IMG/VR virus record: IMGVR_UViG_2529292904_000023 | Source: a virus | Lineage: Duplodnaviria > Heunggongvirae > Uroviricota > Caudoviricetes | Strand: one strand, 5' to 3' | DNA: 27,930 bases | Part shown: positions 8,823 to 18,864 of the stretch, in pieces | Layout: the number at the start of each line of letters is the position of its first letter | How positions within the stretch are numbered: the first letter of the stretch is position 1 | Notes under the pieces: model-generated | What the model was told of the DNA's origin: nothing | Database searches by the model: none | Seen by the model: the letters and a program-made list of their open reading frames with translations, nothing else | Position numbers and translations under genes: made by a program

Positions 8823-9264
8823 AGCAGTGGCTGCTGTGGTGACCGGTGCTGATCTCCGGCTTGCGGTTATTTCAGACTCTCACGGGCGTTTAATTGCCCC
8901 GCCGAACAGCTCTTTTCCGCAATAGCTGCAATGTCTTTCGCGCATCAGCCTGCGCATTCACCACAACGCTGAGAGCACTTAGCCAGTTACGGCACCACAC
9001 TTTGTCGCGGTTCCATAAATGCCCTCATCGTTGCACCCTGGTCTCTTCCCAGGCGTCAAACCGAATCGCCACGCTGGTTAGGCGTCTTATCAGCGTCATC
9101 ATTGACTTGCACATTCCGGCTACCTGGTTTGTTTGCTCGAGCAAGGAGTGGATTGTCCCCTTTAACGTCACCAGACCGCTAACGACGCATGTGCCATACG
9201 CCGTGTTACAACCAAATTTTGTTAGTACCTTGTTTGTATGTCTGGAAAGAAAGATAAAATGAAG

Positions 9265-9303
9265 TTGCGCATTATGCAAGTGTTTTTATTGCGAGATATG
9301 CAA
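9265..9303. promoter_or_regulatory. OL-like operators: two copies of TTGCG-N5-TGCAA
   Basis: TTGCGCATTATGCAA (9265-9279) and TTGCGAGATATGCAA (9289-9303); same motif class as in the cI-cro intergenic region. Confidence 0.5.
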
Positions 9304-9313
9304 TTTGGTGGGT

Positions 9314-9338
9314 AATGAAAAGCCACCTTCTGGTGGCT
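9314..9338 (-). terminator. Rho-independent terminator downstream of cI
   Basis: Minus-strand hairpin AGCCACC-agaa-GGTGGCT followed by TTTTCATT. Confidence 0.65.
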
Positions 9339-9358
9339 AATTGATGTTGAGGTAGGGG

Positions 9359-10051
9359 TTAATTGTGTCGCTTAAGGGTTTGTGACTGACTGATTAAGAC
9401 CTTTCCAAAGACCATAAACCGATGTTCGTTTTCGCTGGTAATTCCCCATTCGCGGTAAATCTGATTATCAGAAATTACCAGCAGTTTATCAGGTATCATT
9501 TGCAGTCGTTTGACGTAAATTTTATCATCAAAACCAAATACATATATACCATCCCCATCAAACTGATTGATACTGATATCAACGAAGATGAGATCTCCTG
9601 GCTCAATGGTTGGACACATACTGTCCCCACGAACGTTGATAACTTTAATGTGATTTGCTGGTCGTCCACCAAACATCGATACAGCATTATCAGTTCTGTA
9701 TTCAATGGCATGAATCACATCAATGACATCACCGCCCTGGATAAGGCCATTTCCCGCACTGGCACTGACATCCAGCATTTCAATACGGAATACATCCTTC
9801 ACCTGCGCAACATCCTCACTAATACTGTTTTTACATACAGTATTACTTTTGAGGTCTGAGGTAAAGAGATCAGCAATATCAACACCTAAGCTCCTGGCAA
9901 TATTACTCAGGGCTTGTTCAGTGAATTGTTTCTGCTTACCTGTTTCGAGGCGCGAGATATTCGCCGCATCCACTCCTATTGCTTCAGCGAGATCGGCGAT
10001 TTTCATGTTCTTCGCCTGGCGAAGTTGTCTGACTCGATTTCCTATGTTCAT
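9359..10051 (-). CDS. cI: CI-type prophage repressor, HTH plus LexA-like S24 autopeptidase
   Basis: N-terminal HTH (QAKNMKIADLAEAIGVDAANISRLETG); Ala-Gly cleavage site (SASAG); S24 motifs VRGDSMCPTI and KRL. Confidence 0.85.
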   Translation of the reverse strand: MNIGNRVRQLRQAKNMKIADLAEAIGVDAANISRLETGKQKQFTEQALSNIARSLGVDIADLFTSDLKSNTVCKNSISEDVAQVKDVFRIEMLDVSASAGNGLIQGGDVIDVIHAIEYRTDNAVSMFGGRPANHIKVINVRGDSMCPTIEPGDLIFVDISINQFDGDGIYVFGFDDKIYVKRLQMIPDKLLVISDNQIYREWGITSENEHRFMVFGKVLISQSQTLKRHN

Positions 10052-10148: not shown

Positions 10149-10409
10149 ATGCAATCACCATTACGGAATGTGCGTAAGGCGCACGGATTTACTTTGCAGC
10201 ATGTTGCTGCGGGCGTTCAGGTCAATCCAGCGACGCTGAGTCGTATTGAAAGACAGGAACAAATTCCATCTATCGATCTTGCAGAACGTCTGGCCAATTT
10301 TTTTAAGGGTGAAATCAGCGAAATGCAGATTCTTTATCCGGCACGTTTTCAATCTAGCCAAAACCAGAATGGGTTTAAACCACAGGAACAGGAGGTAAGC
10401 CGTGGGTAA
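10149..10409 (+). CDS. cro: Cro-like HTH regulator
   Basis: 86 aa, HTH (FTLQHVAAGVQVNPATLSRIERQE); divergent from cI; GGAGG Shine-Dalgarno. Confidence 0.7.
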   Translation: MQSPLRNVRKAHGFTLQHVAAGVQVNPATLSRIERQEQIPSIDLAERLANFFKGEISEMQILYPARFQSSQNQNGFKPQEQEVSRG

Positions 10410-10953
10410 GCATCACTGGAAAGTGGAAAAACAACCTGAGTGGTACGTGAAAGCTGTCAGAAAAACTATCGCGGCGTTGCCGGGAGGTTACGCTGAAGCT
10501 GCTGAGTGGCTGGATGTAACAGAGAACGCTTTATTCAACCGCCTTCGTGCAGATGGCGATCAGATTTTCCCGCTGGGATGGGCAATGATTTTACAGCGCG
10601 CGGCTGGCACTCACTACATTGCGGATGCTGTCGCACAGTCTGCTGGTGGGGTGTTTGTATCGCTTCCTGAAATTGAGGAAGTAGAGAACGCCGATATAAA
10701 CCAGCGCCTGCTGGAAGCCATCGAACAGATCGGGAGTTACTCAAAGCAGATTCGTTCGGCAATCGAAGATGGGGTCGTGGAGCCACACGAGCAGACAGCA
10801 ATTAATGATGAGTTGTATCTGTCAATTTCGAAGCTCCAGGAGCATGCAGCACTGGTCTACAAAATCTTTTGCGCTCCAGAAAAGAGTGACGCCCGCGAGT
10901 GTGCAGCTCCGGGCGTCGTGGCGTTTTGTGTCTGTGGAGAAACTAACGCATGA
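10402..10953 (+). CDS. CII-like regulatory protein (phage 186 CII / CP76-type), tentative
   Basis: 183 aa immediately after cro, GTG start with CAGGAGG Shine-Dalgarno; resemblance to CP76-type regulators is from memory. Confidence 0.4.
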   Translation: MGKHHWKVEKQPEWYVKAVRKTIAALPGGYAEAAEWLDVTENALFNRLRADGDQIFPLGWAMILQRAAGTHYIADAVAQSAGGVFVSLPEIEEVENADINQRLLEAIEQIGSYSKQIRSAIEDGVVEPHEQTAINDELYLSISKLQEHAALVYKIFCAPEKSDARECAAPGVVAFCVCGETNA

Positions 10954-11549
10954 ACAGTTTAACGGCAAATAACCGTTTGTCGCAACAGCTGGTGGTCAGC
11001 GTCGCTGAACACCTGTTGTTACGGCATGAATGCAGATTACCAAATCACCTGGCTGTAAGTAACCACAGAGAACTTTACCTGACTGTGGGGGGCGAGTTGT
11101 GCAGGAACTTAACCGCTGGTTTCGTGACGGAAGAGGGCTTTATGTCCATGTTATTCGTTGGGAGCCAGAAACACAGCGCGTTATCTATCTTCGCAAAGAC
11201 TACCCGCATGAGTGCTTTAGTCCTTTGTGGAAATTCAGGCGTGATTTTGTTGAGTGTGAAGGACCACCAGCATATTGATTCTGCAATTCCGGGACGTTAC
11301 ACTGCTCAGGCACCTTATAAAGCGGGTGCCGGGATTGGCGTCCTGAAATTCGCACATGCGCATAACCGCGCTTCAGCGGTTTTTTTGCGCACGTTTCCTC
11401 ACATCCAAATTATGGTGGGGCGTGCAGGGGCATCGAAAGATGCGCCGGGGTCATGTGCGACCGGTTACGCCAACCCTGTACGTCTCACCACCTCTGTGAT
11501 TGGCGTCCCATGTGGTGAGTTTTCAAAATTCGCACATGAGGATGTCACT

Positions 11550-12095
11550 ATGGCAACCACCCCTACCCAAACTCACCCTAAAATTGATGTTATCCATGGG
11601 AAGGCTGTTACCTCTTCTTTGGCCGTTGCCGAATATTTCTGCAAGCAGCACAAAAACGTTATTCAAAAAATCCAGACGCTTGAGTGCTCTGTTGAATTCA
11701 CTGAGCTGAATTTTCAGCCCAGTGATTACACCGATTGCACAGGCCGCAAACTCCCTTGTTACCAAATCACCCGCGACGGTTTTGCGTTTCTTGCCATGGG
11801 CTTCACGGGTAAACGTGCTGCCCAGTTCAAAGAGGCATACATCAATGCCTTTAACCAGATGGAGAAACAGCTTTCAAATCCCTCTGTACTGAGCGACGTT
11901 GCACATAACGCCAGCGTTCTCTATTCCTACATTTCATCAATTCATCAGGTCTGGCTGCAGCAGCTTTATCCTATGTTGGCAAAAGCCGAATCTCCGCTGG
12001 CTGTTAGCTTGTATGACTATATTAATGATGCTTCGGCACTGGCCTGCCTCATAAATTTGTCGCTGAACCCTTCAGAGGTAAGGGGGCGCAAATGA
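11550..12095 (+). CDS. rha: Rha-family phage regulatory protein
   Basis: KAVTSSLAVAEYFCKQHKNVIQKIQTL...YQITRDGFAFLAMGFTGKRAAQFKEAYINAFNQME; start ATG 11550 with GAGGA Shine-Dalgarno; the 600-nt upstream extension in the track is not accepted as part of this gene. Confidence 0.7.
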   Translation: MATTPTQTHPKIDVIHGKAVTSSLAVAEYFCKQHKNVIQKIQTLECSVEFTELNFQPSDYTDCTGRKLPCYQITRDGFAFLAMGFTGKRAAQFKEAYINAFNQMEKQLSNPSVLSDVAHNASVLYSYISSIHQVWLQQLYPMLAKAESPLAVSLYDYINDASALACLINLSLNPSEVRGRK

Positions 12096-12316
12096 TCCGG
12101 AATATTTTCAAACGGTTTACCAATCAGACTTTCCGTTGTCCTCGTCCGGGTCAGTGGTACACCACACCTGCAGGGCATGTTCTACGTGTTAGCCTGGTTG
12201 ACCGTGAATGTCAGAAGGTGATTTGTGAACCGCTGGGCCGTAATTACCGCGTCAGTATGCCGCTTATAGCCTTTCGCTCCGGAAAAAACATGAAGCATCT
12301 CGGAGGTGCAGCATGA
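12092..12316 (+). CDS. Hypothetical protein, 74 aa
   Basis: ATGA-coupled to both neighbours. Confidence 0.45.
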   Translation: MIRNIFKRFTNQTFRCPRPGQWYTTPAGHVLRVSLVDRECQKVICEPLGRNYRVSMPLIAFRSGKNMKHLGGAA

Positions 12317-18087: not shown

Positions 18088-18163
18088 GGCCCTTTAGCTC
18101 AGTGGTGAGAGCGAGCGACTCATAATCGCCAGGTCGCTGGTTCAAATCCAGCAAGGGCCACCA
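18088..18163 (+). tRNA. tRNA with CAU anticodon (Ile2/Met type, ileZ-like)
   Basis: Cloverleaf folded by hand: 7-bp acceptor stem, GCTC/GAGC D-stem, anticodon loop CTCATAA, T-loop TTCAAAT, encoded CCA. Confidence 0.85.
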
Positions 18164-18172
18164 TATCACATA

Positions 18173-18249
18173 CCGCCATTAGCTCATCGGGATAGAGCGT
18201 CAGCCTTCGAAGCTGGCTGTGCGGGGTTCAAGTCCCCGATGGCGGTCCA
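18173..18249 (+). tRNA. tRNA-Arg (anticodon UCG)
   Basis: Acceptor CCGCCAT/ATGGCGG, anticodon loop CTTCGAA, T-arm CGGGG-TTCAAGT-CCCCG, encoded CCA. Confidence 0.8.
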
Positions 18250-18262
18250 TTATCAGCATCAT

Positions 18263-18339
18263 GCGTTGTTAGCTCAGCCGGACAGAGCAATTGCCTTCTA
18301 AGCAATCGGTCACTGGTTCGAATCCAGTACAACGCGCCA
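18263..18339 (+). tRNA. tRNA-Arg (anticodon UCU)
   Basis: Acceptor GCGTTGT/ACAACGC, anticodon loop CTTCTAA, T-loop TTCGAAT, encoded CCA. Confidence 0.85.
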
Positions 18340-18626
18340 CACCACACTTATCTGCCCTGACTCTCTTTTGCGGGCTTTTTATTACAGGAAAGACACCGGA
18401 CAGTGAAATGTTAAATGCCTCACAATTCAGGTAGTCGACTGTTGCCTGACATGCTGAGCGTTTGTTAAAAAAATCCTGCATGATGAATCCCCCTGGGCGG
18501 CGGGGCATAATGACAGATGTTTGGTTGCGTATTGTATAGGCAAGTTGCGGATTCTGTCTGGTCATTGCAGAATTCACCGGGAGGCACCCGGCATCATGCT
18601 GTATACAGAGATTAGGCATATATCCA

Positions 18627-18652
18627 GGCTCCTCATCGCAGGAGCCTTTTTA
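18627..18652 (+). terminator. Rho-independent terminator
   Basis: GGCTCCT-catcgc-AGGAGCC followed by TTTTT. Confidence 0.6.
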
Positions 18653-18656
18653 CATG

Positions 18657-18682
18657 CAAAAAAAGCCCGAGTAGGTTCGGGC
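18657..18682 (-). terminator. Convergent minus-strand terminator
   Basis: A-run then GCCCGA-gtaggt-TCGGGC; reads as hairpin plus T-run on the minus strand. Confidence 0.5.
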
Positions 18683-18864
18683 AACAGCATGAGATACTTG
18701 CATTGTCATTTTTATCGTGTGGATTTTAACCAGGGTTTATCAGGCTGCGCAACTGCGTGGCCTTTTTTCATTTCTTGGGCTGTAGTCCCCGTGTGTCATT
18801 CAGGCTTCCGGACTACAGCCCACTCCATATCTGATTTAATACACTATCCCGGCCGGGAGGAATA

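Follow-up and report, generated by a model that had tools for sequence, protein, structure and literature searches.

A DUF4222 gene and a C4/isrK-type RNA cassette precede rha in the immunity region of a lambdoid prophage

The immI locus of phages P1 and P7 (c4-icd-ant1/ant2) reportedly encodes an RNA, C4, whose loops a' and b' pair with targets a1 and b1 on its upstream side and a2 and b2 on its downstream side. The downstream target occludes the ribosome binding site ahead of the antirepressor operon, and differences between loops and targets set heteroimmunity. In the Salmonella prophage Gifsy-1, read-through transcripts are translationally silent, and the small RNA (sRNA) IsrK, acting in trans, activates the orf45-coupled translation of anrP (Hershko-Shalev et al. 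2016, PMC4825925); translation of orf45 itself was shown with a tagged protein and is needed for that of anrP (PMC4825925). In P4, the immunity elements seqA, CI RNA and seqC lie inside the nested genes eta and kil (Forti et al. 1999, as related in PMC10111431), and that source describes eta as coupled to the preceding gene, its translation from the upstream promoter preventing termination (PMC10111431). Here we compare with these systems the interval 10950-11549 of the viral stretch IMGVR_UViG_2529292904_000023 (27,930 nucleotides, hereafter the window), which precedes rha, the gene of a Rha-family protein. We propose, with a probability of about 0.85, that this interval consists of a DUF4222 gene followed by an RNA-based immunity cassette that gates the translation of rha. 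It clearly belongs with the C4 and isrK families, its nearest counterpart being isrK-orf45-anrP of Gifsy-1, and does not constitute a new kind of system. The elements concerned, in window coordinates, are the following.

11099-11278, plus strand: gene of a small DUF4222 protein of 59 amino acids (aa), with a GTG start (Pfam PF13973, phrog_1343)
11275-11303, plus strand: putative isrK promoter, with -35 TTGATT (11275-11280), a 17-nt spacer, -10 TACACT (11298-11303) and +1 near G11310
11310-11386, plus strand: isrK sRNA, full length (Rfam RF01394), equivalent to P4 seqA / c4-a1b1
11333-11343, plus strand: putative decoy target a1 inside isrK, first copy of GATTGGCGTCC
11346-11358, plus strand: putative decoy target b1 inside isrK, first copy of the 13-mer AAATTCGCACATG
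11364-11386, plus strand: intrinsic terminator of isrK from the terminator scan, hairpin AACCGC/GCGGTT and 7 T's
11408-11495, plus strand: C4-type antisense RNA, full length (Rfam RF01695), of the family of P1/P7 c4, P4 CI and Salmonella STnc1160
11412-11549, plus strand: orf45-like leader frame from a conserved AUG inside C4 (AAUUAUGGUGGG), 46 codons, stop-free and in frame into rha
11451-11460, plus strand: C4 loop b' (TCATGTGCGA), terminal loop of the second C4 hairpin
11467-11473, plus strand: C4 internal loop a' (ACGCCAA)
11498-11508, plus strand: target a2, second copy of GATTGGCGTCC, in which TTGGCGT is complementary to loop a'
11526-11542, plus strand: target b2 and Shine-Dalgarno sequence (SD), second copy of the 13-mer, with TCGCACATGA at 11530-11539 complementary to loop b'
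11550-12095, plus strand: rha, encoding a Rha-family protein of 181 aa (Pfam Phage_pRha E 7e-33, TIGR02681, anti-repressor PHROGs)

Both RNAs were recovered over the full length of their covariance models, isrK with 62.3 bits (gathering score 50, E 7e-13, model positions 1-77 of 77) and C4 with 75.1 bits (gathering score 45, E 9e-15, model positions 1-87 of 87). The isrK model fits the region better than RF03163 (c4-a1b1), the Rfam family devoted to the a1 and b1 targets of C4, which gave 22.5 bits at 11297-11349, below its gathering score of 46.7 bits, and which scores 44.1 bits in P4 and 48.1 bits in Gifsy-1. The last of the three hairpins of the isrK model is an intrinsic terminator, and the terminator scan picked up 11364-11386, where a preliminary description of the window, made from the sequence alone, had reported a short hairpin with a run of seven T's. 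The same description had found one 13-mer at 11346-11358 and again at 11526-11538, just before the rha SD; these are indeed its two occurrences in the 27.9-kb window, against 0.01 expected and none of 100 shuffles with two or more. Repeat and hairpin were therefore correctly seen, but their roles as the b1/b2 target pair and the isrK terminator were missed, as was a second exact repeat, the 11-mer GATTGGCGTCC at 11333 and 11498. Likewise, the description had left the coding content of the interval unresolved; there is no conserved long protein, as it suspected, and most of the interval does not encode protein, but it did not see that 11310-11495 encodes isrK and C4.

The pairing potential of C4 ties these repeats together. 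Loop b' (11451-11460) can pair perfectly with 11530-11539 over 10 nt and with 11350-11358 over 9 nt, the duplex with b2 reaching -16.6 kcal/mol, and loop a' (11467-11473) can do so with 11335-11341 and 11500-11506. The two copies of the 13-mer are the targets b1 and b2 of these loops, those of the 11-mer the targets a1 and a2, and b2 covers the first two bases of the rha SD, GAGGA at 11538-11542, ahead of the ATG at 11550. Homologous loci (80 gathered via Rha and 120 more via a C4 sequence pattern) yielded at least 60 distinct C4 alleles, and the structure and covariation figures given here come from an alignment of 31 alleles (A1), with partners slid against each other as control. The outer stem of C4 is 99.8% paired and its inner hairpins 100%, with nine pairs changed on both sides, while the terminator helix of isrK is 63% paired, a value lowered by alignment register; the slid control gave 37-47% for all six helices together. 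Between C4 and isrK (b1/b' with a1/a'), 96.4% of the cells are paired against 32-48% when slid, and the covariation score is 0.89 against at most 0.17, a level reached in none of 500 shuffles. Between C4 and the leader (b'/b2 with a'/a2), the corresponding figures are 84.1% against 34-49%, and 0.60 against at most 0.15. Furthermore, across 54 alleles the median Watson-Crick run from a loop to its own targets is 7-8 nt, as opposed to 4 nt to the targets of other alleles, and in most of these alleles GGAGG or GAGG and a start codon come directly after b2. Loops and targets thus change together, as expected of an RNA repressor whose specificity defines heteroimmunity; P1/P7 c4, P4 CI and isrK-orf45-anrP of Gifsy-1 display the same heteroimmunity pattern. 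Loops b' and a' are combined in differing ways among the at least 60 distinct C4 sequences, and this diversity suggests a large set of mutually heteroimmune RNA specificities.

Some loci carry the cassette in other states. Two or three complete isrK-C4-small-gene cassettes are arranged in tandem at a spacing of ~656 nt in L118, where C4 starts at 9775, 10431 and 11087 on the minus strand, and tandem cassettes also occur in L103, L104, L156, L171 and L057; each has its own b'/a' loop specificity, and each leader frame is ATGA-coupled to the stop of the preceding gene. In L055 (1726-2020), four single-base deletions relative to its relatives have disrupted the leader frame as well as some of the complementarity of a' and b', and this copy looks to be decaying.

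Upstream of isrK, TTGATT-17 nt-TACACT is taken as the isrK promoter by analogy with PisrK of Gifsy-1 (PMC4825925). This putative promoter overlaps the stop codon of the DUF4222 gene. In loci with unrelated upstream DNA, similarity starts exactly at ATTGATTCTGC, the -35 element, and other allele groups retain a -10-like hexamer at equal distance.

The arrangement most closely resembles that of Gifsy-1, in which a promoter, isrK with its terminator, a C4-type RNA (STnc1160), a small open reading frame (ORF) and an antirepressor-like gene follow in the same order. There too both Rfam families match, a1/b1 lie in isrK and a2/b2 before the SD, with b2 adjoining it, and the small ORF, orf45, starts at a C4-internal AUUAUGG equivalent to AUG 11412 of the window. 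The two loci differ in their effector, which is of the Rha family here whereas AnrP has an ORF6N domain, and in their leader, which is stop-free and fused in frame with rha here whereas orf45 ends with ATGA at anrP. In addition, loop b' has 12 nt here and 8 nt in Gifsy-1, so that the amino-acid frame differs after the loop, and the cassette of the window lies behind DUF4222 in the early-right operon, between the cII-like and replication genes, whereas that of Gifsy-1 is downstream of antQ. With P1 and P7 the window shares the C4 RNA family RF01695 and the layout of a'/b' against a1 b1 and a2 b2, and its allele covariation matches their heteroimmunity; in P1, however, c4 and ant are separated by icd and ant is repressed indirectly, through polarity, whereas b2 here overlaps the SD of rha itself, and the upstream target here is inside a terminated sRNA, isrK.

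P4 carries an isrK-like element at 8615-8692 and the C4-like CI RNA at 8420-8507. P4 has an internal constitutive promoter and a long ORF that starts upstream of it and is coupled to the preceding gene; the window shows the same plan around its putative promoter, with frame 0 open from the ATGA at 10950 and spanning the cassette in one frame and in the P4 register. By contrast, P4 CI acts mainly through premature (Rho-dependent) termination, and the short nested product of P4 is Kil, with the epsilon antirepressor encoded by a separate gene, whereas here the nested short product would be Rha.

Ahead of the cassette, the GTG-initiated 59-aa ORF that the preliminary description had placed at 11099-11278, in another frame than the long one, is a real, conserved protein gene. 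Its product matches Pfam DUF4222 (E 9.4e-14, 51.1 bits, gathering score 27) and phrog_1343 (E 2e-36) and is recorded in RefSeq as WP_001379286.1, annotated in some genomes; the homolog in locus L007 starts with ATG instead of GTG. Among four diverged homologs, the ratio of nonsynonymous to synonymous changes per site (pN/pS) over 11099-11278 is 0.13-0.39 in the DUF4222 frame versus 1.3-2.0 in the long frame, and substitutions cluster at the third codon positions of the DUF4222 frame. The latter thus carries the purifying selection, which makes DUF4222 the gene and the long frame a bystander over this part. Thirty-six distinct DUF4222 alleles end 133-139 nt upstream of the C4 AUG, with the exception of the truncated copy of L103, which ends 151 nt before it. 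A sequence search of the PDB with the DUF4222 protein found nothing.

Locus L004 (Salmonella phage 118970_sal3) had raised the idea that the 10950 frame is joined to DUF4222, either by programmed frameshifting or as a natural fusion, and this idea was rejected. In L004, a private 1-nt insertion (equivalent to window position ~11144) links the frame coupled to ymfL with the C-terminal portion of DUF4222, the fused product being annotated as a 108-aa 'putative antirepressor', and this insertion is probably a mutation or a sequencing error, since three other loci with the same DUF4222 allele do not have it.

Further DUF4222-like sequences were noted. The 74-aa gene that follows rha (12092-12316; phrog_1153, E 1e-45) looks like a distant DUF4222 paralog, the 59-aa protein matching phrog_1153 weakly (E 0.008), and in L057 the first 11 codons of its counterpart are joined to the leader frame of the second cassette. 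In locus L210, which is from E. coli JB2 and represents the prophage of the window, there is a further DUF4222 gene at 9185-9426; it is annotated as frameshifted and lies close to xis/int in the early-left arm. Finally, a perfect 10-nt inverted repeat, GCTGGTGGTC and GACCACCAGC at 10988-10997 and 11262-11271, flanks the DUF4222 gene of the window; its arms are 264 nt apart and chance is a possible explanation.

The long frame behaves differently from the DUF4222 frame. As the preliminary description had reported, ATG 10950 overlaps the TGA of the CII-like gene ymfL as ATGA, and the frame it opens runs into rha, giving an ORF of 381 aa (10950-12095) that is open to the rha stop. The view that this frame does not look protein-like also held: beyond the ratios of 1.3-2.0 over the 59-aa ORF, pN/pS over 11279-11549 in 22 alleles comes to 0.96 for the rha frame, with 0.84-0.86 for the two others, and the variable columns are spread evenly over the three codon positions (53/60/52), with no third-position excess. 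Selection at the amino-acid level is absent from the long frame over 11279-11549. The argument originally given, a poverty in charged residues, is weakly true but does not discriminate, since D+E+K+R make up 15% of the long frame, 17% of Rha, 23% of YmfL and 32% of the DUF4222 protein. Codon-usage scoring, which had been suggested as a check together with protein searches, does rate the long frame like rha (+0.27 bits per codon over 11279-11549), but the log-odds are dominated by the presence or absence of stops and were not used as coding evidence.

The protein searches, besides identifying DUF4222, returned a match of the long frame to Pfam PF10554, Phage_ASH, at residues 117-197 (nt 11298-11540; E 5.9e-11, 43.2 bits). 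The DNA under this match is exactly isrK, C4 and a2/b2, and Phage_ASH as a true domain failed the purifying-selection test in spite of the profile match (pN/pS 0.96). A sequence search of the PDB with the leader found no relative. The Phage_ASH family appears to be a conceptual translation of the RNA cassette, or at most a translated leader, and no folded domain.

What is conserved in the frame is the avoidance of stops. Among 32 related alleles chosen by an RNA feature only (a 12-nt b' loop), the rha frame is stop-free in 31 over the isrK part and in 31 over the C4 part, compared with 12 and 12 for one of the other frames and 4 and 3 for the remaining one. In Rha-linked loci, insertions and deletions (indels) are mostly multiples of 3, the exceptions being decayed copies or copies with unrelated upstream DNA, and where the upstream context is unrelated, an ATG in frame 0 stands 156-174 nt ahead of the C4 AUG and often overlaps the stop of the preceding gene as ATGA. 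The preliminary description had opposed its own view to that of a conserved, single 381-aa protein, and on this point the homologs give half an answer to each side: of 49 distinct homologous regions on the upstream side, about 40 leave 201-203 codons of the frame uninterrupted, and GenBank and RefSeq records annotate it as one protein, but diverged sequences conserve only the avoidance of stops and not the amino-acid sequence. The openness of 10950-11278 says little, as this part is ~97-100% identical in those loci. The long frame is most likely a translated leader that is kept stop-free for the passage of ribosomes, rather than a protein domain. The content that had been left unresolved comes down to a DUF4222 gene, a putative promoter, a leader frame without stops and two regulatory RNAs of known kind together with their targets.

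Two observations belong beside this frame. A 47-aa ORF at 11356-11499 (frame 1) was rejected as a gene, having no family match and stops in 20 of 32 alleles. In L105, L124, L125, L132, L095, L170 and others, the start codon following b2 is displaced by 1-2 nt (GGCCACACCATGG, GCCACATGG); the canonical ATG of these groups is out of frame with the C4 AUG, yet the C4-AUG frame is open for 148-416 codons.

Put together and read by homology with the described systems, these elements suggest the following course. The promoter at the DUF4222 stop codon would transcribe isrK (11310-11386), and read-through past the isrK terminator would give transcripts that carry C4 (11408-11495) and the rha leader and from which the RNAs would be processed. 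The exposed C4 loops b' and a' would pair with b2 and a2 in the leader and, because b2 overlaps the rha SD, ribosome loading would be blocked and no Rha made. IsrK, with its second target copy a1/b1, would titrate C4 or refold the leader and so activate rha, in the way that IsrK activates anrP in Gifsy-1; it would be in excess because of its terminator, its decoy targets relieving the C4 block. Ribosomes starting at AUG 11412, or handed on from genes further upstream in PR transcripts, could then read past the terminator and the C4 target and continue into rha, and with fused frames and no stop from AUG 11412 to rha, a 227-aa isoform is possible. If the analogy with P1 and P4 extends this far, C4 repression may also exert polarity on the downstream replication genes. 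The product of rha is antirepressor-like by family, from its Rha Pfam and anti-repressor PHROG matches, and the cassette would thus act as an on/off gate for an antirepressor-like regulator in a widespread prophage immunity region.

Several points weigh against this reading. The putative isrK promoter matches the consensus at only 8 of 12 positions and was missed by our scan, which had a threshold of 9 of 12, and AUG 11412 has no obvious SD. The b2 columns of one subgroup are partly out of register in A1, which lowers the paired fraction between C4 and the leader to 84%, and the stop-avoidance counts are non-independent events because the alleles are related. Whole-RNA duplexes between C4 and either the leader or isrK have no clear energetic advantage over those with shuffled targets; these energies being uninformative, support comes from the loop-level complementarity and its covariation. 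Finally, P1 and P4 act largely via Rho-dependent termination after a block of translation.

Of the other explanations, the one that survives best adds to the proposed gate rather than replacing it, and we hold it to be an open contender at somewhat less than even odds. The RNAs would be real, and in addition the stop-free frame would be translated from upstream on PR transcripts, as in the nested eta gene of P4, starting at ATG 10950 coupled to ymfL or at internal ATGs, the sequence of the product being irrelevant. Such translation would suppress the isrK terminator and bypass C4, making rha insensitive to immunity in lytic growth and C4-repressed in the lysogen. The near absence of stops from the rha frame in both RNA genes (31 of 32), the indels in multiples of 3 and the frame-0 ATG that recurs ahead of the C4 AUG in unrelated contexts all favour it, as does the register shared with P4 eta/kil, read from common Pfam profile coordinates. 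So do the precedents of P4, where eta translation prevents termination (PMC10111431), and of Gifsy-1, where orf45 translation is required for anrP (PMC4825925). On the other hand, a frame of the type found in the window must cross 180 nt of DUF4222 in another frame, a part too conserved for testing, L017 has a frame-0 stop at the DUF4222 end, and the case is built from sequences of alleles that are not independent.

A still more tentative step would see the stop-free frame of this large lambdoid prophage group, which extends from the gene ahead of the cassette through the isrK promoter, the terminator and C4 as far as rha, as a P4-eta-like 'immunity bypass'. In that event, ribosomes coming from ymfL along PR transcripts would open up the isrK terminator, take no notice of C4 and make Rha with N-terminal extensions, in isoforms of 381, 295 or 227 aa, whereas C4 would repress the transcripts that start at the internal promoter. 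A single DNA segment would thereby combine two regulatory RNAs and their targets with a promoter and a coding leader whose sequence is of no consequence, and the Pfam 'Ash domain' found on thousands of Bro/Rha/Ant proteins would be a trace of this layout instead of a domain of the protein.

Much less probable, and in our view very unlikely, is that the 381-aa ORF (10950-12095) is a single real Rha protein with a long N-terminal 'Ash' domain, the RNA matches being incidental. The ORF is annotated as one coding sequence in phages cdtI, mEp460 and PhiR47_1 and in E. coli JB2 (WP_001087332.1), its ATGA coupling to ymfL and its openness in most upstream regions would suit a protein, several PHROGs span the extension as Phage_ASH does (E 6e-11), and its codon-usage score is near that of rha. 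This score, however, chiefly reflects the lack of stops, and purifying selection sits in the DUF4222 frame, with long-frame pN/pS of 1.3-2.0 over DUF4222 and 0.96 over isrK-C4. Moreover, upstream of about -100 codons the frame is broken or replaced in L017, L018, L057 and L068, every allele retains a conserved SD and ATG that belong to rha itself, and the same 'Ash' leader also stands ahead of unrelated downstream proteins. The profile itself points the same way: Phage_ASH also matches, in the same register as the long frame of the window, the obsolete 137-aa 'cI protein' ORF over the CI RNA of P4, whereas the true P4 epsilon/Ash belongs to a different Pfam family, PF25738 and not PF10554. The last explanation, that the interval is an ordinary intergenic spacer whose repeats and open frame are due to chance, can be dismissed: such features do arise by chance and whole-molecule duplex energies are unexceptional, but the 13-mer was expected 0.01 times, two Rfam families exceed their gathering scores, the region recurs in over a quarter of complete E. 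coli genomes, and three-way covariation across dozens of alleles already refutes it.

The gate proposed here for rha would belong to a lambdoid prophage inserted beside mlrA, of which the window represents the immunity and early part. The remaining features of this setting are given below; downstream of rha, the 74-aa gene is followed by replication genes.

9359-10051, minus strand: cI-like repressor gene, from the gene order in the window
10149-10409: cro-like gene, from the gene order in the window
10402-10953, plus strand: CII-like/YmfL gene (Pfam Phage_CP76, E 6e-15; ymfL in RefSeq)
10950-11098, plus strand: 149-nt stretch between ymfL and DUF4222, first part of the stop-free long frame

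The stretch 10950-11098 matched nothing in Pfam, NCBIfam or the PHROGs, nor in Rfam at E<=1, and the secondary structure of 10954-11098 is not significant (fold z-score -1.3). The data are too few for pN/pS to separate the frames over this stretch, which is missing from other contexts, e.g. L007, and may be a spacer or an untranslated or translated leader.

The region was matched in 1489 of 5426 complete E. coli genomes, including relatives of Stx phages. Its annotation in RefSeq is uneven, with Rha given as 381 aa in one genome and as 295 aa in another, the DUF4222 gene sometimes missing, and neither isrK nor C4 annotated. An 'Ash domain' has been reported on Rha/Bro proteins (e.g. PMC8951638), and this N-terminal domain of Pfam and the PHROGs looks like a translation of RNA genes. 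The practical points of our finding accordingly concern annotation, and the mildly novel question that it raises is whether the leader is translated as a P4-eta-like bypass.

Further along the window, three tRNA genes (18088-18336) are followed by the sRNA STnc100 (18449-18657, 175.6 bits) and, on the strand opposite to it, by AgvB, an anti-GcvB sRNA (18658-18717), whose 56.2 bits are exactly at the threshold. Stx-like prophages typically show this tRNA-STnc100-AgvB layout downstream of Q.

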